Shown here piece by piece: positions 14 through 63,298 of a stretch of DNA of 64,000 nt (its first letter is position 1; each line of letters starts with the position of its first letter). Source of the stretch: an archaeon (GTDB taxonomy: Archaea > Nanobdellota > Nanobdellia > Woesearchaeales > GW2011-AR9). A model generated the notes under the pieces. That model ran no database searches, had not been told where the DNA came from, and saw nothing but the letters and a program-made list of their open reading frames with translations. The stretch is from positions 14,262 through 78,261 of the forward strand of contig JAUYKZ010000023.1 of NCBI GenBank assembly GCA_030704845.1, read 5' to 3'. Made by a program: the position numbers and the translations under genes.

Positions 14-946
14 TCATATTAATCCGTTCTCGTTTAATTCTTCAAGTGCTCCAATCATTGCTAATGGAAACATCACGGTAACATCTCCGATAACTGTAGC
101 AACATCAGATTCATCTTTAACTTTACCCCATGATTTAGCCTCTTCCGTAGTTGCTCCAGACATACTTCCCGAAGTTTTATGAGCTGTAGTGATGTAAACT
201 GCATAATTTGCTCCGCCGTTAAGTAAAGTACAAAGGATGGCATGATGTTTACTGATAGATCCACCTAAGGCGATTACTCCTTTTTTCTCATCTTGAGATG
301 TGGTGAATAAGATGTTCCCAAAATCTTTGACTACATCAATAATAAAATCTGAATGGGTTTGCTGGAATAAGTAAAGGTGAAATCCGAATGCTCCATCGGT
401 GATAGCCGGACAAAAAATTGGAACATTATTTTTAGCTGCTTGATAAAGTATGGAATTTTCATCATCTAGCAATAATCCAATTTCTCTAAGAAGTTCTGAT
501 ACAGCCCATCTTTTCTGTTTTTGGTATAATTTATCTAAAACAGGTCTCACCCAATCCTCAAAATTCATATAACTCTCGTTTTTAATAAGAATATTTCCAA
601 CTCGGTTGATGCCTTTTTCATGTAATTCTACATCGTCTGCAGAAAATGTTCCGAGGGAGAATTTTTCTCCGGTAGATTTCATGATATCTTCTTCAATTCC
701 ACCAACAGTTGTCACGATAACATCGGCCATTTTTAATTTAATTAACTGAGCGAAAAATCCTCTTAATCCAGAAGTAACCATATTAGATGTAAAAGTAAGA
801 TAAATCTTGGCAGAATTCTTTTTCATTTTTACGATGACTTCAGAAGCTTTTTGTAATTCTACGCTTTGGTAGCCAATATTACCATATGATTTAACTAAAT
901 CTTTAACCGTAATTCCTTTTGTCCATTGAAAATCTGTAACATTCAT
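14..946 (-). CDS. dys: deoxyhypusine synthase
   Basis: Whole-length resemblance to DHS. It has the GGSISKHH motif and a C-terminal SWGKV lysine motif that lines up with the catalytic-lysine region of eukaryotic/archaeal DHS. The stop codon is TGA. Confidence 0.8.
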   Translation of the reverse strand: MNVTDFQWTKGITVKDLVKSYGNIGYQSVELQKASEVIVKMKKNSAKIYLTFTSNMVTSGLRGFFAQLIKLKMADVIVTTVGGIEEDIMKSTGEKFSLGTFSADDVELHEKGINRVGNILIKNESYMNFEDWVRPVLDKLYQKQKRWAVSELLREIGLLLDDENSILYQAAKNNVPIFCPAITDGAFGFHLYLFQQTHSDFIIDVVKDFGNILFTTSQDEKKGVIALGGSISKHHAILCTLLNGGANYAVYITTAHKTSGSMSGATTEEAKSWGKVKDESDVATVIGDVTVMFPLAMIGALEELNENGLI

Positions 947-1074
947 GATATTTACCTTTAATTATTTTTTAACACTTCAAAACAACCTACTAATAACTAT
1001 TAAGAAAAAGAATTTGTCCTAACTTCCAGATTTTCTAACTGAATCCATTTTATCTGTAAATATGCGTTTTATTA

Positions 1075-1791
1075 TTAAATGTATCGTCTGATTTTTATAA
1101 ATGCTTTTGCTTCAAGCTGTCTGATTCTTTCCCTACTCACGTTGTATTGATTTCCAAGTTCTTCTAAGGTAACTCCTTCTTCACCATCTAAACCAAGGCG
1201 CCTTATAACGATATCTCTGCTACGTTCATTTAAATCAATTTCTGCCATAACCCTAATCAAGCGAATCTTATACCGCTCAGAATCATCCACGCCTTCTGTG
1301 AGAAGTGTGTAAGGGTCAGTATTATTGGATGATATTTTTTCATATCTTTCTGTTCTTCCACTCTCGCCAACTAGTTGATCTAAAGATAACTGAATTTGTT
1401 CAGCTAGGATTATTTCCAATACTTCATCTAAGGGAATATCTAATCTTTCAGATATTTCATTAGGTGTTGCGTCGGTTCCAACTCTTGAACGTCGACTATG
1501 AAATTTTCTTCTAGATCTTGTATCTCCGGAAAGCCCACCTATCTTTCTTAATCCATTATAAATTCCTTTTAAGATATATGGTTTTGCATAAGTGACAAAT
1601 TTTGCAATTGTAGGATCATATTTTTTTGCAGCTTCAACTAATTCAAGAATAGCTTCAGCTTTAACATCTTCGAATGCAGAATGATCTGGTAGAATAAATT
1701 TTTTGACGTACGATGTAGCAAAACCTAGGTGATCTGCAGGATTAGATGAGTAGTCTCTGTCTTCAGTAGATTTTTTAACACTTTTAGTCAT
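1075..1791 (-). CDS. sigma-70 family RNA polymerase sigma factor (bacterial type)
   Basis: Region 2 is present (EAILELVEAAKKYDPTIAKFVTYAKPYILKGIYNGL, which matches the EGNxGLMKAVEKFDPxxGxKFSTYATWWIRQ pattern). Region 4 HTH is present (VTLEELGNQYNVSRERIRQLEAKAFIKIRRY). At 238 aa it is the size of a group 3 or FliA-like sigma. Confidence 0.7.
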   Translation of the reverse strand: MTKSVKKSTEDRDYSSNPADHLGFATSYVKKFILPDHSAFEDVKAEAILELVEAAKKYDPTIAKFVTYAKPYILKGIYNGLRKIGGLSGDTRSRRKFHSRRSRVGTDATPNEISERLDIPLDEVLEIILAEQIQLSLDQLVGESGRTERYEKISSNNTDPYTLLTEGVDDSERYKIRLIRVMAEIDLNERSRDIVIRRLGLDGEEGVTLEELGNQYNVSRERIRQLEAKAFIKIRRYI

Positions 1792-1850
1792 TTTAACCGC
1801 AGGGCGGTGCCTACTTTTAAATGTTTTCTCTGTTTTTAGAAATATTCATT

Positions 1851-2228
1851 TTAATACTTACAACCGGAAAACTGGGATAGTTCTTCTATAGTTTGATATC
1901 CTTCATAAAAAGTTTCATCAATTTCCCAGGTAGGGAAATATTTTATATCTTTATCATCGCAAAGTTGTTCTTCTACTTCGGTTCCGTCGCAATCAACATA
2001 TTTATGTTTAAGATAATTCCAACCTTCTCCAAGAGTTTTTTTCTGTTCTTTACAAGGCATGCACCAACTCGCCCCATACATTACCGCTTTTTCAGCTAGA
2101 CATTGACCGAATTGAATTTCTCTTTCTGATTTTGAGAGTGGTTTTTCTTGAGTTGCCCCACATCCTAAGGTTAGAAGAAATGCTAAACCAACTCTTTTTA
2201 TTGTATCCATCAAATTATATATACTCAA
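1851..2228 (-). CDS. secreted thioredoxin-fold protein (CxxC, lipoprotein-like signal)
   Basis: N-terminal hydrophobic signal ending in LGCG. It has a WCMPC redox motif. The true start is possibly the internal Met at MDTIKR. Confidence 0.5.
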   Translation of the reverse strand: MSIYNLMDTIKRVGLAFLLTLGCGATQEKPLSKSEREIQFGQCLAEKAVMYGASWCMPCKEQKKTLGEGWNYLKHKYVDCDGTEVEEQLCDDKDIKYFPTWEIDETFYEGYQTIEELSQFSGCKY

Positions 2229-9122: not shown

Positions 9123-9200
9123 AGCGGGGTGGGGCAGTAAGGAGTGCCCGCCGGGCTCATAACCCGGAGGTCGGAGGTTCAAATCCTTCCCCCGCTACCA
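9123..9200 (+). tRNA. initiator tRNA-Met (CAU), archaeal type, CCA encoded
   Basis: agcggggtggggcagtaaggagtgcccgccgggctcataacccggaggtcggaggttcaaatccttcccccgctacca. A1:U72 pair, three G:C pairs closing the anticodon stem, anticodon CAT, T-loop ttcaaat. A possible TATA-like ttttaaag lies about 28 nt upstream. Confidence 0.8.
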
Positions 9201-14994: not shown

Positions 14995-15306
14995 ATGTTC
15001 TGTCCTGAATGTGGTTCTATTCTAAGGCCAAAAGAAAAAGCAGGTAAAAGGATTCTTTTTTGTAGCTGTGGTTATACTAAAAATTCCGAAGGAGAAGCTG
15101 TATCGATAACAGAAAAGAGTAATGAAGGAAAAAAGATTGAGATTATTGAAAAATTAAACGCAAATCCGAAAATTAAAATGAAGTGTGAGAAATGTGGTCA
15201 CGGAGTAGCAACGTATTGGACCCAGCAAACACGAGGAGCAGATGAACCAGAGACAAGATTCTTCCGTTGTGAAGATTGTGGTCATACTTGGAGGGAATAT
15301 GCGTGA
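14995..15306 (+). CDS. tfs: RNA polymerase subunit M / transcription factor S (RpoM/TFS)
   Basis: N-terminal CPECGS...CSCG zinc ribbon. C-terminal TFIIS-type ribbon CEKCGH...YWTQQTRGADEPETRFFRCEDCGHTW. A GGAGGTGA Shine-Dalgarno sits 7 nt upstream and a TATA-like ctttataaag further up. Confidence 0.8.
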   Translation: MFCPECGSILRPKEKAGKRILFCSCGYTKNSEGEAVSITEKSNEGKKIEIIEKLNANPKIKMKCEKCGHGVATYWTQQTRGADEPETRFFRCEDCGHTWREYA

Positions 15307-22036: not shown

Positions 22037-22630
22037 TTATTTTTTTTTGTTTCTTCCTCTCATCCTAACTTCTTCCAATCTATCTAGAATTTCTTTTCCG
22101 TTAGGATTATTTTCAGAATATCCTTGCAGAACATTTTCAAATAAGCCGGGAAGTTCGTAATGAGTACTTTCCAATGTTCTTTCAAGTAAAAACAAATCAA
22201 CAGCTTTATCTTCAGTTTTTTCTGAGAAAAATGATAAACCAAAATCAATAAAATGAAGAGCTCTATTTTCCTTATGAACAATCATGTTTGAAGTTGTTAA
22301 ATCGCCATGGATAATTCCGTTGGTATGTAACTCAGCTACTCTTAGACCAATCTCGCGAGAAAATGTATGGTCCATTACATCTTTCAGTTTTTCACCAGGT
22401 ATGAAATCCATCACGATGGACATTCTTTCATCGGAAAAATTCTTTAAATGTGGGGCTGGAAAATTAGTTTCTGCAAGTCTTCCAAGAACCTTAGCTTCTC
22501 TTCTGGTTCTAAATTTACGAAGAGATTCATCTAAATGGGGATAACGATATTTTTTACTGAACCTTTCTTTTATAACATCATTATGATCTTTGTATAGTAC
22601 AGCTTCCGCACCTTGAGCAATTTTAAGCAT
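22037..22630 (-). CDS. bud32: Bud32/PRPK kinase (KEOPS complex)
   Basis: Minimal RIO-like kinase of about 200 aa with an IIHGDLTTSNMIV catalytic loop. Confidence 0.7.
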   Translation of the reverse strand: MLKIAQGAEAVLYKDHNDVIKERFSKKYRYPHLDESLRKFRTRREAKVLGRLAETNFPAPHLKNFSDERMSIVMDFIPGEKLKDVMDHTFSREIGLRVAELHTNGIIHGDLTTSNMIVHKENRALHFIDFGLSFFSEKTEDKAVDLFLLERTLESTHYELPGLFENVLQGYSENNPNGKEILDRLEEVRMRGRNKKK

Positions 22631-28750: not shown

Positions 28751-28847
28751 ATATACTGAACGAAAAGTATTTTTGTGAACTTTTCGTTGGTATATACAAA
28801 CGCTAAATGAATTAAGTTCCAAATTTCATTTAGCGTTGAGTATATAT
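28751..28847. repeat. Copy B (reverse complement) of the 97-bp repeat at 2217-2316
   Basis: atatactgaacgaaaagtatttttgtgaacttttcgttggtatatacaaacgctaaatgaattaagttccaaatttcatttagcgttgagtatatat. This is an exact reverse complement of copy A as far as I can read. Confidence 0.8.
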
Positions 28848-41462: not shown

Positions 41463-41534
41463 TAGGATGCCAAAAATGTCTTCCTAAATGGTTGTATTTT
41501 AAACACAGCGACATTTTTGTGCATAAAAAAGAGT

Positions 41535-41668
41535 GTCGGGGAAGGGATTCGAACCCTCGAACCCACTAAGAGACAGGATATCTTCCAAGGAAGCCAATTA
41601 TCAATAATTGGTGCCTCATCCATGTGGACTTAAGTCCTGCGCATTTGACCGGACTTTGCTACCCCGAC
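41535..41668 (-). tRNA. tRNA-Leu (UAA) with intron of about 49 nt at position 37/38
   Basis: Minus strand reads gtcggggtagcaaag...gcaggacttaag[intron tccacatggatgaggcaccaattattgataattggcttccttggaagat]atcctg-long variable arm-gagggttcgaatcccttccccgac. The acceptor and T arm are canonical. After intron removal the anticodon stem is cagga/tcctg with loop cTTAAga. The intron carries its own ccaattat/ataattgg hairpin. Confidence 0.55.
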
Positions 41669-44553: not shown

Positions 44554-46617
44554 CTACATCCCGTCGCCGATTGTAATCACTTGGTCTTCATAACTTCCAT
44601 CCCGGTAAATGGTTAACCCTTTACATTTCATCTTCCAGGCTAGCATGTAAGCATCTTCGACATCTTTAATTGCAGCCGTTCTAGGAAAATTAACCGTCTT
44701 TGAAATTGAATTGTCAACATGTTTCTGTAATGTTGCTTGCATTTTGATGTGCCATTCAGGTTTTATATCTTGAGCTGTGACAAAAACATCTCTTACATCT
44801 TTAGGAACTTCTTTGATATGTTGTACTCCACCCATTAAAGACAATTTTCTCATTAGTTCTGGGGAATAAAATCCTCTATCTTTTGCAACTTTTTCAAAGA
44901 CTGAATTGACTGTAATTAATTCATTACTGCTTAGCACAGTTCTTTGAAATGCTAAAGCAAATGCAGGTTCACAACCAGAAGTTGTATTTGCAAGAATACT
45001 TCTGGTACCTGTTGGCGATAAAGATATGCAACTCATATTTCTCATTTTTCTTCCTGCTTTTTCGTGATCTGAACCTTCCCAAGCTGGGCAAACACCTCTT
45101 TCTTCAGCAAGTTGAGAAGATTTCTCATAAACAGCATCTTTAAAGAACGACATCAATTTTTCAGCGATTGCTAATCCTTCTTCTGAATCATATTTAATAC
45201 CTAGCATGAATAACATGTCGGCAAATCCCATGATTCCAAGTCCAAACTTACGCGTTTTTTTGGTTTGTTCTTCAATTTTAGCTTTCGGATAACTATTCAT
45301 GTCAATCACATTGTCAAGAAAATGAACTGATATCTGGATAACTTCTCTTAATTTTTCCCAATCTAAATCTTTCCCAATAACAAATTTTGCAACGTCAATA
45401 CTACCCAAAGCACATCCTTCATTAGGTAATAATGGTGCTTCGCCACATTGATTTGTTGTTTCAATTTCTCCGAGATGTCTAGCAGGATGTTTTCGGTTAA
45501 TTTCATCGATAAAAATTAATCCTGGATCACCAGTTTTCCAAGCATTTTGAGTAATAACCGCGAAAACGTCTTTCGCTCTTAACTTCCCAACATATTTACT
45601 AGTGCGTGGATTTTTTAAGAAATATTCTCGATCTTCTTCAACTGATTTCATAAATCGGTCAGTTACAGCAACTGAAATGTTAAAATTCTTTAATGACCTT
45701 TTATCTCTTTTTGAATCAATGAATCTTAATATGTCTGGATGGTCAACTCTTAGCACAGCCATGTTTGCTCCAGGTCTTACTCCTCCTTGTTTGATAACGT
45801 CAAGAGCCGCATCATAAACTTTCAAAAATGCTAACGGACCGGAGGCAACCCCTAGATGGTGTTGTACCGGATCACCTTTAGATCTTAATCTAGAAAAAGC
45901 AAATCCAGTTCCGCTTCCTCGTTGATGAATGATTGCCGCATCACGAAGAGTTCCAAAAATTGAACGCATGTTATCTTCAATTGGAAGAACGAAACATGCA
46001 CTTAACTGCTGACTGTTTGTTCCAGCATTCATTAATGTTGGCGAGTTAGGTAAAAAATAAAGTTTGGAAAGAATCATATAAAATTGTTGTGATATTTCTG
46101 CAATCTGTTCTGAATTTTTCCGGTAATACTTATCCGCTTTTGCAATATTATTAGCAACTCTTTGGAGCATGCCTTCTGGATTTTCTTTAAGATTTCCAAG
46201 TTGATCTTTCATTAAATATCTTCTATCTAATATTTTTAATGCTTCATTGGTAAATGAATGATCTTCTTCACCGACATGTTGTTCGCCTAGAATTAATGCT
46301 CTTCTTGCTCTGGTTTCACTTCTGGTATGCCGATGTAGAATGTATGCTTTTGCAGTCTTAGCATGTCCCCTATCAATTAATGTTTTTTCAACTAGGTCTT
46401 GTACGTTCTCAACAGTCGGTTTAGAAAGTTGAAATTTTTCACCAATAATCCTTTCGATATCCCTCGCTAAAGCAAGGGCCAATACTTTATCATCACCACC
46501 TACTGCTTGAGCTGCTTTGAAGATTGCATCAGCAATTTTGTTTACGTTAAACGAGACAATTCTTCCATCACGTTTAGTTATTTCTTTTATTTGGAAACTT
46601 TTGTTATCTTCTGTCAT
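44554..46617 (-). CDS. ribonucleotide reductase catalytic subunit (class II-like) with N-terminal ATP-cone
   Basis: ATP-cone (IKEITKRDGRIVSFNVNKIADAI). It has LPNSPTLMNAGT, SACFVLPIEDN radical-Cys and NQCGEAPL motifs. No beta subunit gene is nearby, and an adenosyltransferase sits adjacent. Confidence 0.75.
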   Translation of the reverse strand: MTEDNKSFQIKEITKRDGRIVSFNVNKIADAIFKAAQAVGGDDKVLALALARDIERIIGEKFQLSKPTVENVQDLVEKTLIDRGHAKTAKAYILHRHTRSETRARRALILGEQHVGEEDHSFTNEALKILDRRYLMKDQLGNLKENPEGMLQRVANNIAKADKYYRKNSEQIAEISQQFYMILSKLYFLPNSPTLMNAGTNSQQLSACFVLPIEDNMRSIFGTLRDAAIIHQRGSGTGFAFSRLRSKGDPVQHHLGVASGPLAFLKVYDAALDVIKQGGVRPGANMAVLRVDHPDILRFIDSKRDKRSLKNFNISVAVTDRFMKSVEEDREYFLKNPRTSKYVGKLRAKDVFAVITQNAWKTGDPGLIFIDEINRKHPARHLGEIETTNQCGEAPLLPNEGCALGSIDVAKFVIGKDLDWEKLREVIQISVHFLDNVIDMNSYPKAKIEEQTKKTRKFGLGIMGFADMLFMLGIKYDSEEGLAIAEKLMSFFKDAVYEKSSQLAEERGVCPAWEGSDHEKAGRKMRNMSCISLSPTGTRSILANTTSGCEPAFALAFQRTVLSSNELITVNSVFEKVAKDRGFYSPELMRKLSLMGGVQHIKEVPKDVRDVFVTAQDIKPEWHIKMQATLQKHVDNSISKTVNFPRTAAIKDVEDAYMLAWKMKCKGLTIYRDGSYEDQVITIGDGM

Positions 46618-46622: not shown

Positions 46623-49600
46623 TTAACTACACCCAGTTGTTTCTCCGCAAACTTCACATAACATGCATGTGCCATTTTGTCTTAATTGAGTTGCTCCGCA
46701 ACCACTACATTTCATGGTTGTATTTTTTGTTGAAACTATTCTGCTTGAGATTTCTTTTTTTACAGGTTCATTCGTTGATTTGATCTTAATACCCATGTCT
46801 TCAAAGTCACAAAGGAACTCTTGAAGTTCTGAGATTACAGGATGTCCCGGTACATTTAAACTTTCCCTTGCAATCTTAACTGGATCGGCTCCTTCTCTTA
46901 GACTGAAATTAACTCCATTAACAATGGTTTGCATCATTACTTGTTGTATTGGTGAGACCCAATCCATTGAGATTTCAATTCCCCCAATTATATTATTTTT
47001 AACTTCAGCAGTAAATATACATTTTTTACCAGCAAGTTTTACAACTTTTTTGTAATATGTTATTGGCGAAACTTCCAAAGGAGTTACAGTTTCTTCCGTT
47101 GATTTAGAGGTAAGTATATTCTTAAGCTGAGAGTTTTCTCCTAAAATCGAATTTAATGGTTGGCTTAATTTGCTTCCATCTCGGTAAAGAGCAACAGCTT
47201 TAATCATCAATTTCCAGGAATCATAGTATGCTTTTTTTATCTGTTCAACGGTCCATTCTTGAGGCATGTTAATTGTCTTAGAGATTGCACCAGAAACAAA
47301 TGGTTGAGTTGCCGCAAGCATATTTAGATGTCCATAAGGGTGGATATATCTTTTTCCGCCTTTACCACATTTATTAGCACAATCAAAGACTGGTAGATGT
47401 TCTTCTTTAAGATGCGGAGCACCTTCTAACATCATTGTTCCACAGATGTGTTTATTTGCTGCATCAATTTCTGTTTCTGTAAATCCAAGGGCAGTAAGGA
47501 AATTTCCTTGTTTTCCATTCATGATTCTATTATAGAAATCTTCTCCTAATGTCCATTGATTAAAGACATAACTAATATCCATGGAGTTTCCTAATTCTTT
47601 CTCTACTTTCATGATTTGCTGTTCACTAAATCCCTTAGCAGTTAAAGAATCAAGGTTAATGTAAGGGCTTCCATCAAGACTACCATTGCCAAGACAATAT
47701 TGAATAATATCTCTTGTTTGTCCTTCAGTATATCCTAATTTACGTAACGATTTTGGAACTGATTGATTAACAATCTTGAAATATCCACCACCAGCTAGTT
47801 TCTTGAATTTAACTAATGCATAATCCGGTTCAACACCGGTAGTATCACAATCCATAACTAAACCAATTGTTCCAGTTGGGGCGAGAACGGTTGTTTGTGC
47901 ATTTCTATATCCGTGATTTTCTCCTAACCGTAGAGCCTTATCCCAAGCGTTATGAGCGGCTTCTAGCAGTTCTTTAGGACAGAGAATTTGATCAAGCGCT
48001 AGTGGTTTGATTGTTAGATCTTCATAATCTTCTTCGGAGGCATTATAAGAAGCTCTTCGATGATTTCTGATTACCTTTAACATGTGTTCTTTGTTATCTT
48101 CATATCTCTCAAATGGTGCAAGGGCCGATGCTAACTCTGCTGAAGTAGCATAAGCATCACCAGTCATGATTGCTGTTAAGGCACCAGAAATTGTTCTTCC
48201 TTTATCACTATCATATGGAATTCCTTGTAACATTAACAATGAACCAACGTTAGCAAATCCTAACCCTAAAGTTCTGTATTCAAAACTTCTCATTGCAATT
48301 TGTTCAGATGGGAAATGGGCCATTAATACAGATAACTCTAATGCGATAGTCCATAATCTGATTGCATGTCGATATCCTTTAATATCAAAAATTCCAGTTT
48401 TATCTTCATAGAACTTTACTAAATTAATTGATGCAAGATTACAAGCAGTATCATCTAAAAAATTATATTCTGCGCAAGGATTACTTCCGTTAATTCTTCC
48501 TCCTTCAGGGCAAGTATGCCATTCATTGATGGTTGAATCATATTGTATTCCTGGATCGGCACTAGCCCATGCACAATAACCAATTTGATCCCACAATTCA
48601 TGTGCGGGGATAGTTTTCATTACACTCCCGTCAGTTCTTGCTTTTAATTCCCATGCTTCTCCATTTTCTAATGCTTCAAAGAATGAATTTGGAATTCTTA
48701 CAGAATTATTACTGTTCTGTCCAGATACTGTAACGTAAGCTTCAGATTCATAATGGGTATCGAATTCTTGAAGTGGTAAAGAATATCCTTGTTTTGCTAA
48801 TTCTAAAGCTCTAATAACATAATTTACCGGAATTTCGTCGTGTGAAGCAGCTTTGATTGCATTCTGTACTCCTAAATCATTTAATGGGTTTTCTTTACCT
48901 TGAGAAAGTTCGATAAGTTTGCCTAATCGTTTTTTTAGAATTTTACTTCCTGCAACCAAATCTGCAACTTTTTCTTCTTCTTTAACTTTCCACCAGATTA
49001 AACTTTCAATTTCGGGATGATCTAAATCTAATGAAATCATTTTGGCAGCTCTTCTAGTAGTTCCGCCAGACTTTATACTTCCGGCAGCGACATCAAATAT
49101 TTTAAGGAAACTCATTAACCCGCTACTTGTTCCTCCACCCGAAAGACGTTCACCTTTTCCACGTAATGCTGAGAAGTTACTTCCGGTCCCGCTACCATAT
49201 TTGAATATTCTTGCTTCTCTGATAAGTAAACTTAGAATTCCGCCATCACGAACTAAATCGTCATTTAATGCTTGAATAAAACAATTGTGTACAACAACCC
49301 CATTCCCCAAAAATTTTCCACTTTCTGTTTGAATGTCATATACATTCTTAATACCAATGCTTTCTATTGACATGATTTGTTCTTCTCTGATAAGTGGAAG
49401 ACATTTTGAACGTTGGACTAGTTTGTTGAGTAGTAGCAATTTATCATGTTTCTCCTCACTAATGAAACCAATTTGTTCGGAATATTGTTCACGAGCACTT
49501 CCATAAGCAATAATCACTTGATTTGTTCCTGCACGATTTTCTCGGCTATCAATATTCTTAGATATTCTTGCATAAATCCCAACAGAATTAAGCAATTGTA

Positions 49601-50987
49601 GCACGCCAAATGATAAATCATCTGAACTGGTCGTTAAGCAGATATCTCCCGAGTGTCTACTTTCATCTACTCTTATTCTAACACACCCATCGGCTTGGAA
49701 AAGGGTTTTAAGGAACTCTCGTTTTTCTTGAGGCGAGGAGTATACTATTTTCTTTGGAACTCGAGCTGTTCTACTTCTACTTTCTAGCAGTTCATATTCC
49801 TCAACAAAAGGATGTATCTTTTTCCCAGCTAGATGAACTCTTTTTCCATTTATATTATCACTTTTGGTATCAAATGTTGTAATCCAATAACTCACATCAT
49901 TACCAAAAACTTCCTTAATATCTTCTATTACTGATTCATGTTCGGAATCATTAATGGTTATTATCTCCATTCTCATTACGTTAGAATAAATTCCAACTGA
50001 GCCATCTCCGACAACCCATCCAGCTAATCTTGCTTTAGCTAAATCTCTACTGAAAACATTTTTTTCTTTAACATCAAGCATTAATGGTTGCTGAAGCCTA
50101 TGTCTTACTTTAACATCCTTAAGTTCCTTCCAAGTGTATTCACCATGCCATTTCTCTGCTGAGAGTACTACATGATCATTAGTTAAATCAATATAATTGC
50201 CATTTTTAAGAAGGACTCTAAATACTTCTTTTCTACCATTATCCTTAGTCGCTAGAATTTTTACAAAATCTTCTCCATCAAATACTTTAATTCCAGCTAA
50301 ATTATTTTCAACAATATCTCCAATATACATTGTGCCTTTTTCAGTATACAATTGTGTGTAATATTCTGCACACGCATGCGGTTGTGATCTAGAATATGCA
50401 TCTTTTGAGAATTCTAATCTCTTTGTGATTGGATCAACATAACTATGTCCTTGAGCAGGTCCAGTAATTCCATATGCCCAATGAAGACCAGTTGTAAACC
50501 ATTGCGGGCTGTTAGGAGCAGCAGATTGATTAATTATCATGTAAATCATTTCATCATAGAATGTTTGTGCATCATCTTCTGTTGCAAAATAATTAAATTT
50601 CTTCCCCCAATTCATCCAACATCCAGCAATTCTGTGAGCAACTTGTTTAATGCTGGTTTCACTGCCAGAAATAACTTTTCCATTTTCATCAAGAAGTAAT
50701 TCTCCATTCTCGTCACGTAAAGGCACTCCCGCTTTCCGGAAATATTTCTGAGCGAGAATATCGGTAGCTACTTGTGACCAGAAATCAGGGACTTCTACGT
50801 CATTCATTTCAAAAACAGTACTTCCATCTGGATTTTTAATAATAGAGGTTCTTCGTTCATAATTGAACATTTCTGCTGGTGGTGTATCTTCTTTAGTATA
50901 ATATCTTGGAATCTTTAATCCTTCTTGTTCAAGCATAATTTCCTCTTCTTCTTCACCCAGATTTGTTTTATTTTTCATTATAGCCAC
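46623..50987 (-). CDS. ribonucleotide reductase (class II-like, about 1085 aa extein) containing one LAGLIDADG intein; C-terminal zinc ribbon
   Basis: Extein motifs are CFIQALNDD radical-Cys, NPCAEYNFL...CNLASINL, and a terminal CSGCG...[13 protein letters not shown]. The intein spans residues 206-568 (about 363 aa). It begins CAEYY, ends VVHN followed by C, and has [11 protein letters not shown] and LFQADGCV endonuclease blocks. Confidence 0.8.
49284..50372 (-). other. intein with LAGLIDADG homing endonuclease inside the RNR gene
   Basis: The Cys1 ... His-Asn/Cys+1 splice junctions sit exactly at the RNR active-site cysteine codon (host context SQPHA|CFIQ). Coordinates were derived by residue counting. 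Confidence 0.7.
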
Positions 50988-51449: not shown

Positions 51450-51965
51450 ATGGTTACTTCAATCATCATTAAAAGCCTTTATTTTTTCTTACCGGTATAT
51501 TTTGCTAATATGGCTCCGGTATTATTCAAATGGTTACCTTTTAAGAAACCAATAAGTAAAAAAATGTTTGGTAAAAACAAAACGTGGAGAGGATTGATTG
51601 TGGCTATATTAGTTGGTGGAATTGTTTTCTGGGCACAGAAACTTCTTTTTAATGCTGGTTTTGTTTCCCTAGCTTTCATTGATTATCATGATTTCCCCAT
51701 ATACTATGGTTTTCTGTTAGGAATTGGAGCAATTTTAGGTGATCTTGTCAAGAGTTACTATAAACGTAAAGTAGGAATAAAACCGGGCGATTCTTGGTTA
51801 TTTTTTGATCAAGAAGATTTCGTGATTGGAGCATTTTTATTCTCATTATTTTATTATGTTCCGCCTATAGAAATTGTTTTTACATTATTCCTGGTAAGTC
51901 CATTTTTACATATGGCAGCAAATTATACCGGTCATCTTCTTGGAATTCGTGAAAAACCGTTATAA
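51450..51965 (+). CDS. carS: CDP-archaeol synthase (CarS, DUF46 family)
   Basis: About 170 aa and multi-TM. The GDLVKSYYKRKVGIKPGDSWLFFDQED region resembles the CarS cytoplasmic loop motif. Confidence 0.55.
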   Translation: MVTSIIIKSLYFFLPVYFANMAPVLFKWLPFKKPISKKMFGKNKTWRGLIVAILVGGIVFWAQKLLFNAGFVSLAFIDYHDFPIYYGFLLGIGAILGDLVKSYYKRKVGIKPGDSWLFFDQEDFVIGAFLFSLFYYVPPIEIVFTLFLVSPFLHMAANYTGHLLGIREKPL

Positions 51966-54186: not shown

Positions 54187-54570
54187 ATGGCTGAACTTGT
54201 AGCAAAAGTTGGACTTAAAAAAGAGCCTGGATTTCTCTATTTCCTAGACAAAGGCGGAAACGTTGCTCGAGCTCGTATGAGTCGAGTTAAAATGCGAGGA
54301 AAATCCAAGATCGAAGTAGTAGCAAAAGTAGGAGTTAAAAAAGTATCCGGATACCTTTACTTTATTGATAAGAAAGGTAATGTTTCAAGAGCAAAAATGG
54401 CTCGTGGAAGAAAATCTGGAAGCGGTAAGAAAAAAGTTGCTAAAAAGAAAGTAGCAAAACGTAAAGCTGCTCCAAAAAGAAAAGCTGCTAAAAAGAAATC
54501 GGTTAAGAGAAAAGCTGCTCCAAAAAGAAAAGTTGCTAAGAAAAAAGTAGCTAAGAAAAGAAAAAGATAA
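54187..54570 (+). CDS. lysine-rich small protein with a duplicated module of about 31 aa and a histone-H1-like KRKAAPKRK tail
   Basis: ELVAKVGLKKEPGFLYFLDKGGNVARARMSR is repeated as EVVAKVGVKKVSGYLYFIDKKGNVSRAKMAR. Tandem DNA repeats of agaaaagctgctccaaaaagaaaag encode the tail. Confidence 0.5.
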   Translation: MAELVAKVGLKKEPGFLYFLDKGGNVARARMSRVKMRGKSKIEVVAKVGVKKVSGYLYFIDKKGNVSRAKMARGRKSGSGKKKVAKKKVAKRKAAPKRKAAKKKSVKRKAAPKRKVAKKKVAKKRKR

Positions 54571-54610
54571 TTTTTTTTTCTTATTTTTTTTTAATTTTTT
54601 TAATAGTGAA

Positions 54611-54620
54611 TTTTATAAAA
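54611..54620 (+). promoter_or_regulatory. putative TATA box (ttttataaaa) about 26 nt upstream of the dus ATG
   Basis: Read directly. Confidence 0.35.
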
Positions 54621-54640
54621 AGATACATTAATTCTAGGTT

Positions 54641-55573
54641 ATGTTACCAAAATTTAGCAGTAAAGCTTTCCTTGCCCCTATGGCAGGTGTATCTGACCCA
54701 GCTTTGCGTCTAATCTGTAAAGAGCTTGGAGCAGGGTTAGTTGTCACAGAATTTACAAGTATTCATGCTATTACTGCTAAAAGGGATGATATCACTAAAT
54801 TTATTGAATTCTCTCCAAAAGAAAAGCCAATTTCGGTACAATTGTTTGGTTCAGATTTAGAAAAATTGAAACAAGCAGTTAAGATCGTTGAGCCACATTT
54901 TGATATTATTGATTATAACCTGGGTTGTCCAGCCCCCCATCTTACTCAACAGATGGCTTGTTCTGCTCTATTACAAGAACCAGAGTTAACAAGGAAAATC
55001 TTCAGAACAATGGTTAAAGCGACAAAAAAACCAATAACGATTAAGATAAGGTCGGGAGTTTCTTTGCCTGATAAGTGGAAAGAAATAGCTTTAATCGCAG
55101 AAGAGGAAGGTATAGCTATGATCACTTTCCATCCAAGAACTGTTAAACAAGGGTACTCTGGACAGGCCGATTGGTCTTTGATAACAGAATTGAAAGAATT
55201 GGTAAGTATTCCTGTCGTTGGTAATGGAGACGTGCAGACGCCCGAAGATGCTAAAAGAATGTTTGAAGAAACAGGATGCGATTATGTTATGATTGGAAGA
55301 GCTGCAGGTAAAAATCCGTTTATTTTTACTCAAATAAATGATTTTTTATCCACTGGATCTTATAAAGAAGTTGATCTAAAAGAAAGGATTATGGTATTCT
55401 TTAGATATCTTGAATATTCAAAAATGTATCCCACAATTAAATTTGTAAATATCCGCATGCAAGCTATGAATTTCACTAAAGGAGTCAAAGGTGGAAAAGG
55501 ATTACGGGAAAAGTTAATGAAGGCAAAGGATATTGAAGAGTTAAAAAGCATTTTGGAAGGTGCAATATTATAA
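54641..55573 (+). CDS. dus: tRNA-dihydrouridine synthase
   Basis: FLAPMAGVSDPALRLICKELGAGLVVTEF N-terminus of Dus TIM-barrel enzymes. A catalytic Cys lies in NLGCPAP. Confidence 0.75.
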   Translation: MLPKFSSKAFLAPMAGVSDPALRLICKELGAGLVVTEFTSIHAITAKRDDITKFIEFSPKEKPISVQLFGSDLEKLKQAVKIVEPHFDIIDYNLGCPAPHLTQQMACSALLQEPELTRKIFRTMVKATKKPITIKIRSGVSLPDKWKEIALIAEEEGIAMITFHPRTVKQGYSGQADWSLITELKELVSIPVVGNGDVQTPEDAKRMFEETGCDYVMIGRAAGKNPFIFTQINDFLSTGSYKEVDLKERIMVFFRYLEYSKMYPTIKFVNIRMQAMNFTKGVKGGKGLREKLMKAKDIEELKSILEGAIL

Positions 55574-56298
55574 TGAAAAAAGGACATCAACAGTACATTT
55601 TGGAAAAGGAATCGGTTAAACATCGAGTTCAAAAACTGTTAAGTAACCATGGTTATTGTTCACGAAGGAAAGCTGAAGATTTGATTAAAGATGGTCGAGT
55701 TACGGTAAATGGAAAGAAAATAACCATCGGCGATCAGGCAACCGAGAAAGATACGATAGCTGTTGATGGAAAAGTTGTTGGTAGGGAAAGGAAGGTATAT
55801 TTAATCTTTAACAAGCCAGTTGGATGTGTAACTGCGTTACGTGATCCTCAATATAAAACTGTAATGAGTTATATCTCCGTGAAGGAAAGAGTTTTTCCGG
55901 TCGGTAGATTAGATTATAACACTTCAGGATTATTATTATTGACAAATGATGGAGATTTTGCTAACAAAATTATGCATCCAAGTCATGAAATTAAAAAGAA
56001 ATATTTGGTAACCCTAGATGGTCCAATCGATAAAAAAGCTATCGATAATCTTCAGCACGGAGTACAGTTAGATGACGGTAAAACAAGACCTGTTAAAACT
56101 CATGTAGTTGAACCACATGTAATTGAGATAAGTATCCATGAAGGTAAAAATAGGATTGTTCGAAGAATGTTTACTGCTCTTGGTTACCGAGTAAAAGCTC
56201 TTAGTCGGGTAGCTGTGGGTAAATTATCTTTAGGAGATTTAAAAGTAGGTACGTATCGTAACCTTACCAAGAAGGATATTGATCGGATATTTATTTGA
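55573..56298 (+). CDS. pseudouridine synthase, RsuA/RluB family (S4 domain plus catalytic domain)
   Basis: N-terminal S4-like RVQKLLSNHGYCSRRKAEDLIKDGRVTVNG and the catalytic VGRLDYNTSGLLLLTNDGD aspartate motif. Confidence 0.7.
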   Translation: MKKGHQQYILEKESVKHRVQKLLSNHGYCSRRKAEDLIKDGRVTVNGKKITIGDQATEKDTIAVDGKVVGRERKVYLIFNKPVGCVTALRDPQYKTVMSYISVKERVFPVGRLDYNTSGLLLLTNDGDFANKIMHPSHEIKKKYLVTLDGPIDKKAIDNLQHGVQLDDGKTRPVKTHVVEPHVIEISIHEGKNRIVRRMFTALGYRVKALSRVAVGKLSLGDLKVGTYRNLTKKDIDRIFI

Positions 56299-56340
56299 GA
56301 TTTGGTAAAGTTTAAATAACCAATAACTTATTTTCAAAAT

Positions 56341-57042
56341 ATGAAAAAAATAATCATTCCTTGCGTGTTTTTACTCTTAGTTTTTATTGTGTCTTCTTGC
56401 TCAACTCAATTTGTTTGTTCAGATGGAAGTGTTACAGACTCTCCAGATAACTGTCAAGGAGCCGATGTACAGGATAATAGTGATGTTGTTCAAGCAGATG
56501 AAGTTGTAGGATTTCCTGGCGGATTAATGGAACTAATCCAGAAAGGTCAGAATGTTCAAAGTTTTACTTATGATTATAAAGAAATTAGTAAACCAAAAGA
56601 ACCAACTTATCCGTATAAAATTTATGGTTCTACTGTTAAAAGATATCTTCCAGTTAAAACTGGAATTCTTAACCAGAATGAACTGGATGTAATTATTTCT
56701 GACAGATTATCGAAAACATCTCTGGGATACTGTGAAAGTTTGAAATATTGTATTAAACAAGGCGAGATTGGTTCAGTTGATTTTAGTGAATACTATGTAG
56801 ATACCCCATTTGATTGGTTAGATAGAATTCAACGTGCAGAGATAGAAACTAAGAATGAAGAATTATTTGGACGTGGAGTTTGGAAAGTTATCGCAAATAA
56901 CGGCGAATTTACGATTTGGATTGAGAATTATTATGGTGTTCCATTGAAAGTATCTACAGTTTCTGAAACTTACGAATTTAGAAATCCCAAATTTAACACC
57001 ATTAAGAGTAATGATGTTGAGTTTGAGGAAATTTCTTCTTAA
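56341..57042 (+). CDS. hypothetical lipoprotein
   Basis: Signal peptide with SSCS lipobox. Confidence 0.35.
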   Translation: MKKIIIPCVFLLLVFIVSSCSTQFVCSDGSVTDSPDNCQGADVQDNSDVVQADEVVGFPGGLMELIQKGQNVQSFTYDYKEISKPKEPTYPYKIYGSTVKRYLPVKTGILNQNELDVIISDRLSKTSLGYCESLKYCIKQGEIGSVDFSEYYVDTPFDWLDRIQRAEIETKNEELFGRGVWKVIANNGEFTIWIENYYGVPLKVSTVSETYEFRNPKFNTIKSNDVEFEEISS

Positions 57043-57338
57043 TAATTTCTTTTATTCAATTGAATAAGTGGTTTCAGGCGATATCAACACTTCTTTGTTT
57101 TCATACCCGAGAAGATTATTTAATTGTTCCAGTGTTCCTTCATATCCAACAAGAACCATTTTTTTAGATTGGTCGGTTATTCTTACATCTGGAAGATTGA
57201 CCAATTTTTCAAGAAGAGTTTCTAGAGATAAATCTTTAGATTTAATTCTTAGAATGTAATTTTCCATAATCTGGTTTAGCTGTGATTTTATTTAAAGGTT
57301 CTTAAAATTTATAAACTACGCTAGATTCTCACCTTAAA

Positions 57339-57980
57339 ATGGATGATTATATTGAAATTTTTATCGATTCTCAGGATTTAATAACAAGTAGTCCTAACAT
57401 TCCATTTCAAAATAAATTGGATGAATTGATCCAGCGTATCGAGAAAGAAAATGCTTGTTCTATTCCAGCCTTAGGGTTAGAAGAAAACCTTCAAGGTTCG
57501 GTAACACTGGGAGTTAATGCTTGGATGCACCAATCTGTATTTGATGGAATGAGAACAGAATTGGAAGATACTTACGGTAATGTTCAAGTTAAAATAGCTA
57601 ACGTTCTTTTTGAGGTTAGATCTCGTGATTATGGTTTAACTAGAGATTTGGTTGGAAAGTTAAGAAAACGTAATATTGTAGTTGAAGGTTACTGGCTTAT
57701 TGATCTTAATAAAGCTAGATTTATTGACTGTTTATCAGATAGAACTTATAAAGATATTAAACAGATGGCTAATGAAAAAGAAAGATTCTGGTATCTTAGT
57801 TGTAGAGCTGAAAAGAGTTCATATTTTGAAGATTTGTTTGAAACTGAACTTGTTCCTTACAAGAATGGCGATGTGTTTTCTCCGCATGTGAATTTTGGTA
57901 TGATTAAAGGTTTTGTAATACCCGATGATCTTAAGAGGTATATTTCTGAAATTAATCTTTATAATGCCCATGGAATTTGA
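57339..57980 (+). CDS. hypothetical protein
   Basis: ORF only. Confidence 0.3.
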   Translation: MDDYIEIFIDSQDLITSSPNIPFQNKLDELIQRIEKENACSIPALGLEENLQGSVTLGVNAWMHQSVFDGMRTELEDTYGNVQVKIANVLFEVRSRDYGLTRDLVGKLRKRNIVVEGYWLIDLNKARFIDCLSDRTYKDIKQMANEKERFWYLSCRAEKSSYFEDLFETELVPYKNGDVFSPHVNFGMIKGFVIPDDLKRYISEINLYNAHGI

Positions 57981-58162
57981 GTTAAGAAAAAATTGAATGT
58001 CTTATTCTCCTAAAACTTCTAATACTTTTTTCTCTAGTCGTGTAAGTTTGACTTTTTCTAAATGGATGTTGGTACTATGATGTTCTGTTTCATTCGCCAG
58101 GTGTATTTTAAGTGGGCTAATATTGATAAACAAATAACTATTAAATTTAATCCCACGTTATA

Positions 58163-58203
58163 GGGGTGTCTACAAAAGCGAAAGATTTAAATATGTAGAC
58201 ACC
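58163..58203. repeat. hairpin ggggtgtctac-N21-gtagacacc, 12 nt upstream of the fic ATG
   Basis: Read directly. It has the same 9-bp stem as the hairpin starting at the fic stop codon (59107-59138). Confidence 0.5.
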
Positions 58204-58214
58204 TTTAAAATATT

Positions 58215-59108
58215 ATGTTTATAGAAATTAGAAAAAGAGGAAAGAGTAAAAAGTATTATCTTGTTCATTCATATAGAGAAAGTGGTAAAATCAAGAGAAT
58301 TTCTCGTTATCTTGGTTCTAATCTTAACGAGAATAAACTACTAGAATTAGAGAAAAGGGCAGAACAGCATATCTTGGAAGGAATAAAAGAAAGAAGTATT
58401 CTTGAGTTTGAGTTAACTAAAAAAGAGATTGAAGAGTATAAAAAGTATGAGACAGATATTGAAATAAAACATTTACAAACATTAAATTGGAAACGATTTA
58501 CTGAAACTTTTACTTATAACACAAATGCTATAGAGGGTTCAACTGTTGCCCTCTCTGAAGTTAAGGAATTGTTGAGTGGAGAAGAAGAACCTCAAGGTGC
58601 GGACGATATTGAAACTCTTAATGTAGCAAAAGCCGTTGAATATATTCAAAAATCTAAAGAAAAGATAACTTTGAATTTTATTAAGCATCTCCATTTAATT
58701 TGTTTTAAAGGAACTAAGGGGTTTGCGGGTAAGTTGAGAGAAGTAAATGTTGTAATTAGGGATAGTCAAGGAAATGTTGTTCATGAAGGAGCACCAATAA
58801 ATAAAGTAAGGAGTTTGGTTGAAGAGCTTTGTAATTGGTATATTAAACATAAAAATAAATATCCTCCGTTACTTCTTGCTGCCGTCATGCATAATCAGTT
58901 TGAGAAGATACATCCATTTCAAGATGGTAATGGAAGAGTCGGAAGATTATTATTAAATTATGTTTTGTTACAGCACAAATATCCTCCAATTAACGTTCGT
59001 TTACGAGATCGAATTAGGTATTACAAGTGTTTACAAGAATATGATCAAAAGAATGATATCAAGTCTACTTTGAAATTTTTGATTAGTGAATATAAAAAAC
59101 AGTTTTAG
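58215..59108 (+). CDS. fic: Fic/Doc family protein (putative AMPylase)
   Basis: HPFQDGNGRVGRLLLNYVL matches HPFx[DE]GNGRxxR. TAG stop. Confidence 0.75.
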   Translation: MFIEIRKRGKSKKYYLVHSYRESGKIKRISRYLGSNLNENKLLELEKRAEQHILEGIKERSILEFELTKKEIEEYKKYETDIEIKHLQTLNWKRFTETFTYNTNAIEGSTVALSEVKELLSGEEEPQGADDIETLNVAKAVEYIQKSKEKITLNFIKHLHLICFKGTKGFAGKLREVNVVIRDSQGNVVHEGAPINKVRSLVEELCNWYIKHKNKYPPLLLAAVMHNQFEKIHPFQDGNGRVGRLLLNYVLLQHKYPPINVRLRDRIRYYKCLQEYDQKNDIKSTLKFLISEYKKQF

Positions 59109-59138
59109 GTGTCTACGTTTGGATTATGTAGTCACCCT
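59107..59138. repeat. hairpin aggtgtctac-N12-gtagtcaccc followed by a T-run, starting at the fic stop codon
   Basis: Read directly. One mismatch relative to the upstream stem. Followed by cttttttagggg. Confidence 0.5.
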
Positions 59139-59278
59139 TTTTTAGGGGTGGGATTTCATAATAAGAAGGGTATGCCCCCGCCGTACAAAGGCGTCTTATT
59201 CTAAATCTCGATTAGAATGTGATGGTTGTAATTACAATTAAATTGTTGATGTATTTATATATTTCTATTCTGTCGAGG

Positions 59279-59569
59279 CTATTTCTTCATTTGTGTCTCA
59301 TCTGGTACAAATGTCGGGTTGTTAAATGGGTTTAGTATTTGTATTAATGTACCAAAATAACCTTTCTTTTTATCTAAATCTCCTCTGAATAATATAATCA
59401 AAGCGATAGCATTTGGAACAAGAAATTCGGAAAAATCCATGATATTATCAGCTAGAGAAATATCTGGATAAATTAGGGAAATAATGAATGAAGAAATAAA
59501 TGACCCTGTTGCAACTCTAAAAAAAATAATTCCCCACCTGAACCCCTTAAAGATCTGTTCTTCATTCAT
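59279..59569 (-). CDS. small membrane protein
   Basis: Hydrophobic ORF. Confidence 0.25.
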   Translation of the reverse strand: MNEEQIFKGFRWGIIFFRVATGSFISSFIISLIYPDISLADNIMDFSEFLVPNAIALIILFRGDLDKKKGYFGTLIQILNPFNNPTFVPDETQMKK

Positions 59570-60355
59570 TTATTCTTTGGAATTCTGCTTATATTAAAAA
59601 TTGTGTTTACACTTTCCAAAAACCGTTTTACAAACCACTTAAACAACCCCCTCTACTAACCCTGCATGGTAAAATACAAATTTACAACCCATGCGCGAGA
59701 ACTTCGTTATTGTGAAATCTGCGATTAACAACTTAGCTTCCATGAAACTATTCTATGTAAAATTTGCCTAAAAGAAGCTGTCTCAATAATGAAACGAGGT
59801 GATAATCGTGGATAAGATCATGGTGATCTCTCTCTTTATTGGAGCTTTAAGCATTCTTGGGAGTTATATTTTCCTGATTATATCTTTCTTAAGGAAGAAT
59901 TATTTTTCTAGTTCTAAATTTGGAGGATATAGGGTCTGAGACTGCAAAGAATAAAGGAATCGAGGTTCAAAAGCCGTTCCTACTTAATGTTTCAAACATT
60001 GAAGCTTTGAGCATACACACGGAGGTACACGACAATGGAAACGACAAATGAATTTAAGGAAAACATACACAGAAGCAGAGCTTCTGGTACATCCGAAAAT
60101 GAGTTTCGGAATGAACCAATAGTAGAAACACAGATTAGTAAGAGTAAGGATGGGAAGTACGTCTTGCATAAGACAATAATCACAGATATTAAACCGGTGG
60201 GGTATTATCAGAAGGTTATTGGGGGGGAGTAATTCCTCCTTTTAACCAACGAAAAGTTTATAAATAATGTCAACATTTAATGTTTACGATAAAACAGAGG
60301 CAGGTGAATAAGATGGCGAAAAGAGAGAAGAATAATGGTCTGAGGATAGATATAA

Positions 60356-61402: not shown

Positions 61403-61546
61403 GGTTTATGGGGGATGTACCAGAAGATGAGGGCGGCTGAGGAGAAGACGAGCAAGTGATAATGCAAGTTATGTTACTGGACAGACTTTATTTTTTGTAT
61501 ACTTGAGAGAATGTGGGTTGTGCGTCGAGATTTATAAAGCGCGTTG

Positions 61547-62425: not shown

Positions 62426-62547
62426 AACTTCTCTAAAAGAATATCTTGTTTTTAAACATATTGAAAGAATGTTCAGTTGTAAGCTAGTTTCAAAATATAG
62501 TATCCACTACATAAAACATTTTAAACAAGTACTTACGAATACCCATA

Positions 62548-63135: not shown

Positions 63136-63298
63136 ATTACGGTGATCGATGATTGGTTTTAGTCAGTGTTGGTAGAGTGACAAAGAAATAGTGATTATGT
63201 ACAGTTTGTATCATATAATTCTAACTACAACTTAACCAGTTCACGGCCGATGATCTTCTTCGAGTACTTCGCAACCACGTTGAGCATGGTGCTGTACT

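Follow-up and report, generated by a model that had tools for sequence, protein, structure and literature searches.

Sigma factors on the one side and TBP and TFB on the other are textbook markers of the bacterial and of the archaeal and eukaryotic transcription machineries, and in archaea TFB has the promoter-recognition and open-complex role that is held by sigma in bacteria. Here we consider a sigma-70 family gene located at positions 1075 to 1791 of a 64,000-nucleotide stretch (the window) of the archaeal contig JAUYKZ010000023.1 (assembly GCA_030704845.1, Woesearchaeales), where it lies next to the gene for deoxyhypusine synthase (DHS). We know of no bacterial core RNA polymerase (RNAP) in these archaea, and a sigma gene under selection in such a host makes one ask which function its domains can have when that polymerase is missing. 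Sigma-70 genes (fam00359) have been described in DPANN archaea and found to be 'particularly prevalent in Woesearchaeota'; mis-binning was excluded, no anti-sigma was found and the mechanism was left unclear (Castelle et al., 2021; PMC8204110).

Since sigma genes of Woesearchaeota are already published, the value of our analysis lies in a sharper, testable description rather than in a new phenomenon, and the novelty implied by a preliminary description of this DNA was overstated. Like fam00359, with which it agrees in host phylum and annotation, the gene is a sigma-70 gene on an otherwise archaeal Woesearchaeota contig and has no anti-sigma partner. Unlike that family as described (PMC8204110), it belongs to an isolated clade of seven clusters, with a drop from 440 to 131 bits at its border, and neither a fixed position at the DHS operon nor fast evolution is described for fam00359 in that paper. 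What is added to the known phenomenon is a distinct and tiny lineage, an archaeal promoter, fast evolution, a recombination block and invariable linkage to DHS. The reading that we favour, with slightly better than even confidence, is that of a resident gene of bacterial ancestry in a narrow Woesearchaeota clade, most likely repurposed as a sequence-specific DNA-binding regulator, probably of its own neighbourhood.

The open reading frame (ORF) is a genuine, intact sigma-70 family gene with the arrangement sigma2-sigma3-sigma4. Its parts are as follows, omega being the ratio of nonsynonymous to synonymous substitution rates and pLDDT the predicted local distance difference test.

1075 to 1791, minus strand: sigma-70 family gene, 238 amino acids (aa), ATG start, TAA stop, without region 1.2
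1714 to 1764, minus strand: family-specific N-terminal motif, residues 10-26, E-x-x-x-Y-S-S-N-P-x-x-H-x-G-F-A-T, just ahead of region 2.1
1540 to 1740, minus strand: sigma2 domain, residues 18-84, the most constrained part (omega 0.11-0.34), with the Pfam r2 match and helices in the AlphaFold2 (AF2) model
1399 to 1521, minus strand: sigma3 domain, residues 91-131, the least constrained part (omega 0.2-0.7)
1288 to 1389, minus strand: region 3.2-like linker, residues 135-168, predicted to be disordered (pLDDT < 50)
1081 to 1284, minus strand: sigma4 domain, residues 170-237 (omega 0.25-0.39), with the helix-turn-helix (HTH) recognition helix S-R-E-R-I-R-Q-L-E-A-K-A

The preliminary description had recognized regions 2 and 4 and called the factor complete. 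Both regions are confirmed by Pfam, with Sigma70_r2 (PF04542) at 33.7 bits against a cutoff of 24 (residues 21-83) and Sigma70_r4 (PF04545) at 54.8 bits against 24.1; Sigma70_r3 is also significant (31.1 bits against 25.3, residues 103-151) and the fold agrees. These three are the sole Pfam matches of the protein and represent a group-3-like architecture. Completeness holds for sigma2-sigma3-sigma4 and not for region 1.2 (PF00140), which gave no Pfam match in the protein, where about 20 residues stand ahead of region 2.1; nearly all of the best bacterial sequence matches carry this region. In the AF2 model (pLDDT 73.7 overall, 80-92 per domain) helical sigma2 (18-83), sigma3 (91-131) and sigma4 (170-237) domains are predicted, the last preceded by the disordered linker (135-168). 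A Foldseek comparison of this model with the PDB placed bacterial sigma chains (SigA/RpoD/RpoS) in all of the top 50 positions (E = 3e-8 to 1e-6), and a sequence search against solved structures gave group-1 SigA chains as the best match (E = 6e-15, residues 22-235). The protein is identical to the NCBI entry 'MAG: sigma-70 family RNA polymerase sigma factor [archaeon]' (MAG, metagenome-assembled genome), deposited on a contig of 114,882 bp.

Residence of this gene of bacterial ancestry in the archaeal chromosome, as opposed to a chimera, is strongly supported, because independent assemblies and samples share the junction with DHS, the composition matches that of the surroundings and the promoter is archaeal. 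The junction is reproduced in an independent Logan assembly of SRR13727534 (L001), which runs on into genes for arginine decarboxylase and agmatinase. The order TatD (minus strand)/thioredoxin (Trx)-like lipoprotein/sigma/DHS recurs on ENA, JGI and Logan contigs of other samples (P0002, P0003 and P0005; sigma 54-70% identical), and the sigma-DHS junction is seen in six diverged lineages and with different assemblers. The GC content of the gene (0.350), that of its third codon positions (GC3, 0.202) and its synonymous-codon fit all lie within one standard deviation of the mean of 48 window genes. The preliminary description had preferred a resident gene to a chimera and had proposed the comparison of codon usage and GC3 with the neighbours; on both counts the recurring junction, the host-like composition and the conserved promoter bear it out, and the mis-join at sigma-DHS that it had entertained is effectively refuted at this locus. 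Its argument from the TAA stop is weak, this codon being used by only 24 of the 48 tabulated window genes, and its suggestion of an intimate bacterial association finds no support in the data.

The promoter assigned to the gene is the following.

1815 to 1829, minus strand: predicted archaeal promoter of the sigma gene, with a BRE (TFB-recognition element)-like AGAAAAC at 1823-1829 and a TATA element TTTAAAA at 1815-1821

The TATA element is centred 27 nt ahead of the ATG (counted on the sequence), an archaeal BRE/TATA geometry that would imply a leaderless sigma mRNA. The block GAAAAC(C/A)TTTAAAA(G/A)T(A/G)GGCA is kept in four lineages, and the spacer surrounding it has diverged. A distant homologue at locus L088 has TTTTTTAAAAAA at -32 to -21 of its sigma gene.

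The family amounts to seven 90% clusters among the 5.8 billion proteins covered by a word-indexed search. In that search five clusters are at least 54% identical and the next matches are bacterial sigmas with no more than 34% identity; in an exhaustive profile search, which covered 1.84 billion representatives, the family itself reached 440 bits and the best full-length outsider 131 bits. No donor phylum is assignable, the best matches (Actinobacteria, Cyanobacteria and Firmicutes) all being 28-34% identical. A second small branch consists of P0124 (252 aa, 38% identical, 111 bits), which has a Y-[SD]-[SP]-N-P-x-x-H-x-G-x-A motif and 'SFSG' after region 2, and its relative P0270 (33% identical). 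P0124 is encoded directly upstream of DHS at three loci (L088, L089 and L090), and P0270 between TatD and the DHS leader at L091. Wherever it is present, the sigma gene is immediately 5' of an operon that begins with a short leader ORF and DHS.

We were struck by how rare and patchy the gene is and yet how fixed its position wherever it is found. A scan of JGI metagenomes returned no additional family members, IMG/VR holds none, and GTDB species genomes scanned with the sigma family alignment gave no match. The look into sister genomes suggested in the preliminary description thus had a divided outcome, in that metagenome contigs carry sigma beside DHS and the GTDB species genomes gave none. 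Of the DHS genes in GTDB species genomes, the 80 closest (69-85% identity) all belong to Woesearchaeota/Nanoarchaeota (DPANN) MAGs, and two hidden Markov models detected no sigma-70 homologue within 6 kb of DHS at these 80 loci. Sigma as a general Woesearchaeota feature of the DHS locus is accordingly rejected (0/80 loci). In a neighbour-joining tree of DHS, both sigma-bearing groups fall in one subclade, which also holds sigma-less genomes. The interval that houses the gene is a spot of variable content in Woesearchaeota. Among the relatives L008-L051, TatD and DHS are adjacent and divergent in L025, L032-L034 and L036, and 1-4 kb of unrelated, mostly unannotated genes separate them in the others.

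For the comparison of individual residues we use the numbering and the residue roles that we take to apply to E. coli sigma70. The positions D403, E407, F419, E420, F427, T429, Y430 and A431 align with D42, E46, Y58, D59, F65, T67, Y68 and A69. Across region 2 the equivalents of D403, E407, F419 (as Y), E420 (as D), K426, F427, T429, Y430 and A431 are kept, and those changed are Q406A, N409I, W433P/S, W434Y/F, R436L, Q437K/R and T440Y. The window protein has P71 and Y72 at the W433/W434 positions, where other close members have S/Y or S/F and P0124 has C/W, and K75 and Y78 at the Q437/T440 positions. The equivalents of the -35-contacting residues of region 4.2 (R584, E585, R586, R588 and Q589) are R220, E221, R222, R224 and Q225, all invariant in the close clade. 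The segment R220-Q225 (RERIRQ) is likewise invariant there and is identical to that of group-1 sigmas in the alignments; P0124 has G-E-R-V-R-Q. It would appear from these alignments that the DNA-reading surface of sigma4 and part of the sigma2 core are kept and that the hallmark melting and -10-reading residues are lost.

Certain features are peculiar to the family. The N-terminal motif is invariant in five close homologues and absent from the aligned bacterial sigmas, and its core, Y-x-x-N-P-x-x-H-x-G-x-A, is retained in P0124 and P0270 at 33-38% identity. The linker motif DPYTLLTEG(I/V)DD is conserved in the close clade, with D159, P160, L164, T165, E166, G167 and D169 invariant; the segment is deleted in P0124. 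The Pfam r3 signal is gone in P0124 and P0270. In all, 44 positions, including the HTH recognition helix, remain unchanged among members that are as little as 33% identical.

The best sequence and structure matches are group 1/2 sigmas (RpoD/SigA, RpoS and the cyanobacterial and actinobacterial SigA-like factors), with which the protein shares the region 4.2 helix RERIRQ(L/I)EAKA and the residues aligned to D403, E407, F427, T429, Y430 and A431. Unlike these, it is at most 34% identical to any of them, has neither region 1.1 nor region 1.2, has an altered Trp dyad and altered -10-reading positions Q437/T440, and occurs in a host without a known bacterial core enzyme. Its scores are also far under the cutoffs of all RpoD/RpoS models (for example 78 against 384.5 bits). 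Of the NCBIfam models only the superfamily model TIGR02937 is passed (62.5 bits against a cutoff of 42.9); the protein is far under every cutoff of the RpoD, RpoS, RpoH and FliA equivalog and subfamily models. For groups 1/2 the values are 77.9 against 384.5 (TIGR02997), 72.4 against 354 (RpoD_Cterm) and 72.1 against 378.7 (RpoS), and for group 3 they are 59.1 against 189.6 (FliA_WhiG) and 65.4 against 323.1 (rpoH_proteo).

With group 3 sigmas (FliA/WhiG, RpoH and the SigB/F type) the protein shares the sigma2-sigma3-sigma4 layout without region 1 and a length of about 240 aa, and the WW dyad is likewise lacking in FliA. Unlike them, it has no flagellar, heat-shock or anti-sigma gene context, and the FliA/WhiG and RpoH models are not passed. 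Extracytoplasmic function (ECF, group 4) sigmas consist of sigma2 and sigma4 only and usually have a co-encoded anti-sigma, whereas here region 3 is also present and the adjoining gene encodes a Trx-like lipoprotein that is extracytoplasmic and lacks a cytoplasmic anti-sigma domain. MzaA of the MZA anti-phage system is matched only in the C-terminal sigma3-4 part (NCBIfam 71.9 against a cutoff of 800 bits; PADLOC 37 bits, residues 187-237). Archaeal TFB and eukaryotic TFIIB are functional analogues of sigma with which any initiation role of the window protein would overlap; there is no homology between them, and the sigma gene and its neighbours carry BRE/TATA elements readable by TFB and TBP.

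The sigma gene evolves quickly, and it does so together with one neighbour.

1075 to 2210: divergent two-gene block (sigma and Trx-like), 1.1 kb inside a conserved backbone
1851 to 2210, minus strand: Trx-like lipoprotein gene upstream of sigma, its product secreted, with a lipobox (LTLGC) and a CMPC active site read from the sequence

Between four close lineages the protein identity is 94-98% for DHS and 89-98% for TatD, compared with 53-77% for sigma and 59-85% for the co-diverging Trx-like protein. Omega is 0.15-0.37 for sigma versus 0.03 for DHS and 0.04-0.06 for TatD. It stays below 1 in every sigma domain, a pattern of relaxed but real purifying selection. When the window is compared with L002, nucleotide identity is 75.3% in the block and 94.8% in the flanks (Fisher p = 3e-63). 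Local identity is 94-96% in both flanks, 92% in the sigma-DHS spacer and 73-79% in the two genes, with sharp borders, one at the stop codon of sigma and the other upstream of the Trx-like gene. For this pair the synonymous divergence (dS) is 1.29 and 0.95 in the block and 0.30 and 0.25 in the flanks. Because dS is about fourfold higher inside the block, its divergence points to recombination (allelic replacement) or a barrier to gene flow, beyond relaxed constraint alone.

The Trx-like gene has a weak Pfam Thioredoxin match (21.2 bits, below the cutoff of 23.5) and a phrog_22 thioredoxin-domain match. It was considered as an anti-sigma partner and rejected, being extracytoplasmic, free of an anti-sigma domain and not linked to sigma at the L088 and L091 loci. 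Beyond the block lies a MITE-like (miniature inverted-repeat transposable element) sequence of 97 bp with two hairpins (2217-2313), of which 28751-28847 is a second, 100% identical copy. The homologous TatD-Trx spacers of L002, L006 and L007 lack it, and the independent contig L001 breaks inside it.

On its other side the sigma gene adjoins the DHS operon. The spacer of 128 bp (947-1074) between the sigma ORF and the DHS start at 946, given in the preliminary description, is correct. DHS and the elements ahead of it are as follows.

14 to 946, minus strand: DHS, Pfam DS 348 bits, the first enzyme gene of its operon
1002 to 1012, minus strand: oligo-T tract TTCTTTTTCTT, after the leader ORF and ahead of DHS
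1019 to 1048, minus strand: leader ORF of nine codons, MDSVRKSGS-stop, between sigma and DHS in a conserved 32-bp block
1072 to 1079, minus strand: TATA-like TTTAATAA of the leader-ORF/DHS operon, at -31 to -24 from the leader ATG and overlapping the sigma stop codon (1075-1077)

The order of the operon is DHS/(233 aa)/arginine decarboxylase/(133 aa)/agmatinase; it continues in L001 and is conserved across the 80 Woesearchaeota/Nanoarchaeota loci. The genes for the 233-aa and 133-aa proteins (L001 2230-2931 and 3965-4366, just past the start of the window) have no Pfam match and may encode missing enzymes of the polyamine pathway. The leader ORF lies 30-130 bp upstream of DHS, with TATA about 27-30 nt ahead of its ATG and a Shine-Dalgarno-like AGGT preceding DHS. 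In relatives that lack sigma, TTTAAAAA or TTTATAAA stands equally far from the leader ATG. No oligo-T tract stands between the sigma stop and the leader ORF, and because of this and of the overlap of the sigma stop with the operon TATA, read-through co-transcription of sigma with the leader/DHS operon would be plausible.

The strict motif M-[DSNE]-[ST]-V-R-K-x-G-S-stop is found in 30 of 86 distinct loci, whether sigma is present or not (the window, L008, L009, L011-L015, L017-L019, L021, L023-L026, L028, L030, L033-L036, L045, L051, L061, L064, L066, L079, L088 and L091). When the search was limited to 700 bp upstream of DHS, 27 of 83 loci had the strict motif and three more a variant ending in G-A-stop. 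Synonymous sites vary freely: Arg is written with five codons, Val with four, Ser with codons of both families, and all three stop codons occur. Selection therefore acts on the peptide and not on the RNA. With this layout the leader ORF is a candidate for a peptide that acts on the hypusine/polyamine operon by arrest or attenuation, and it recalls MAGDIS and SpeFL, which are polyamine-sensing leader peptides. We found no mention of the leader peptide in the literature searched, and it may be a more novel lead than the sigma gene itself. The conserved 32-bp block after the sigma stop was also considered as a sigma target site and rejected, as it is the coding leader ORF and occurs at sigma-less loci too.

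Our proposal for the history and role of the gene is as follows. A sigma-70 gene of bacterial ancestry entered a narrow Woesearchaeota (DPANN) clade long enough ago for its composition to have become fully host-like, and it carries a canonical archaeal BRE/TATA promoter, which should give a leaderless mRNA. The intact ORF has been kept under relaxed but real purifying selection, with the protein evolving about ten times faster than its housekeeping neighbours, and in at least one lineage pair the 1.1-kb block with the lipoprotein gene has been exchanged or kept apart by recombination. The gene lies immediately 5' of the leader-ORF/DHS/arginine decarboxylase/agmatinase operon, whose TATA box its stop codon overlaps. 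Its product is most likely a transcription regulator that binds DNA sequence-specifically, probably at the hypusine/polyamine operon, and not a canonical initiation factor. We infer this last step because selection is strongest on sigma2 and because the sigma4 helix RERIRQ is invariant.

Several points weigh against such a regulator. The connection with the DHS operon is drawn from adjacency, and the shared position may simply go back to one insertion that was inherited. The 80 related loci keep the same operon, and the leader too, with no sigma nearby, and therefore the operon does not need sigma. Strong conservation of sigma2, whose tasks in sigma factors are core binding and DNA melting, is not required of a plain HTH regulator and hints at a protein partner. 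Over the first 20 kb, motifs of the sigma-70 -35/-10 type show no enrichment (78 versus 88 +/- 11 expected), and a conserved DNA motif specific to sigma was not found near the operon. Finally, the visible DNA is 64 kb of a genome, and a bacterial-type RNAP or an anti-sigma may sit elsewhere.

The conservation of sigma2 brings up the idea that the protein is a promoter-specificity factor for archaeal RNAP, which we consider unlikely. In this arrangement sigma2 would sit on the clamp coiled-coil of Rpo1, which is homologous to the clamp helices of beta', while a -35-like element would be read by sigma4, so that TFB is supplemented or replaced at some promoters. Such a role would suit the standing of sigma2 as the most conserved domain, which includes the acidic residues aligned to D403 and E407, presumably core-binding positions in sigma70. 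A new protein contact is suggested by the invariant N-terminal motif, and the acidic motif conserved in the 3.2-like linker of the close clade fits as well. However, we know of no precedent. The melting dyad W433/W434 has given way to P/S and Y/F, Q437/T440 have changed too, and sigma3 and the linker are poorly conserved or, in P0124, deleted. Nor does the count of bacterial-type promoter motifs in the first 20 kb favour it, the sigma gene and its neighbours themselves use BRE/TATA promoters, and a core transcription factor would be expected to have a lower omega than 0.15-0.37.

Similarly improbable is a relic, in which a gene left from an old transfer would be without function or in decay and would persist by chance. 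In favour of it are an omega about 5-10 times as high as in the neighbouring genes, the absence of the gene from most related lineages, whether by loss or because they never had it, and the degeneration of sigma3. Nevertheless, the ORF is intact and of full length in 7/7 cluster representatives, omega is below 1 in all domains and pairs, the promoter is conserved, and the 44 invariant positions extend to the HTH recognition helix.

A more specific form of the polymerase-bound factor, slightly less likely still in our view, is a domesticated sigma on the Pol II-like archaeal RNAP, in which sigma2 and the N-terminal YSSNP..H.G.A motif dock on the clamp and sigma4 reads DNA. If true, this would amount to a second, sigma-style mode of promoter choice in the Woesearchaeota clade, possibly controlling the hypusine/polyamine operon.

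It is very improbable that the protein acts on a bacterial RNAP, be it that of a bacterial host or partner that receives the sigma or a bacterial-type core encoded elsewhere in the genome. Its -35-reading residues are the same as in primary sigmas, fast and patchy evolution is typical of interaction genes, and DPANN archaea are considered to be episymbionts (PMC8204110). However, the sequence shows neither a signal peptide nor a secretion-associated neighbour, the gene context is one of housekeeping, and no bacterial RNAP genes were found within the 64-kb window. Moreover, the known or suspected hosts of DPANN are for the most part archaea.

We regard it as highly unlikely that sigma is the cargo of a mobile element, virus or defence island inserted between TatD and DHS. 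The variable gene content of this interval among relatives, the recombination signature of the block, the MITE-like repeat that abuts it in the window and weak MzaA sigma matches in NCBIfam and PADLOC would all be in keeping with cargo. Set against them are the lack of any integrase, transposase or phage gene inside the block, the confinement of the MzaA match to the generic sigma4 region, and a place beside DHS that is stable across 33-38% sigma divergence. An origin from a virus or phage is rejected, as IMG/VR contains no member, phage sigmas are at most 31% identical and PHROG 351 is a generic sigma family only. Membership of a defence system is rejected as well, the PADLOC match being the generic MzaA sigma4 one and the neighbours having no PADLOC matches. 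An assembly or binning chimera, in which a bacterial fragment is joined to the archaeal contig, is practically inconceivable. The contig is suspect at about 63,240, where GC rises suddenly from 33% to 62-64% and an independent assembly ends, but this point lies 61 kb from sigma, and the sigma junction itself is shared by assemblers, samples from ENA, JGI and Logan and the six lineages, and composition and promoter are those of the neighbours.

For a DNA-binding regulator, as for the alternatives, the locus is a tractable case, offering a small and well delimited family, an archaeal promoter, a fixed DHS/polyamine partner and conserved residues clear enough to mutate.

The gene neighbourhood of sigma is archaeal, as the preliminary description had stated. 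The markers are the following.

9123 to 9200: tRNA-Met, with the initiator features A1:U72 and a GGG/CCC anticodon stem read from the sequence
14995 to 15303: TFS, an archaeal marker
22037 to 22630: Bud32/RIO-type kinase, found along with Gins51
41534 to 41668: tRNA match of 135 nt, which implies an intron
51450 to 51965: CDP-archaeol synthase, an archaeal marker, found along with Dph2

These five had been named beforehand and stand; Sec11, also named, had no match among the window ORFs scanned. Archease, CDC48, NurA, Gins51 and Dph2 are further genes of archaeal context in the window.

At the far end of the window (about 63,240 to 64,000) the GC content is 62-64%, after a sudden rise from about 33%. 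Over window positions 54530-63272 the independent Logan contig L094 is an exact match, and it ends 32 bp beyond the switch. A Cys-rich ORF (63299-63943, minus strand) lies in this GC-rich part, and a homologue search with it gave none. The segment may be of foreign origin or may have been wrongly joined to the deposited contig, and it is irrelevant to sigma. Elsewhere, the window encodes a class II (B12-dependent) ribonucleotide reductase (46623-50987, minus strand) with an intein that carries a LAGLIDADG homing endonuclease domain. It is adjoined by a second gene for a ribonucleotide reductase large subunit, with an ATP-cone (44554-46617, minus strand), and then by a gene for cobalamin adenosyltransferase.

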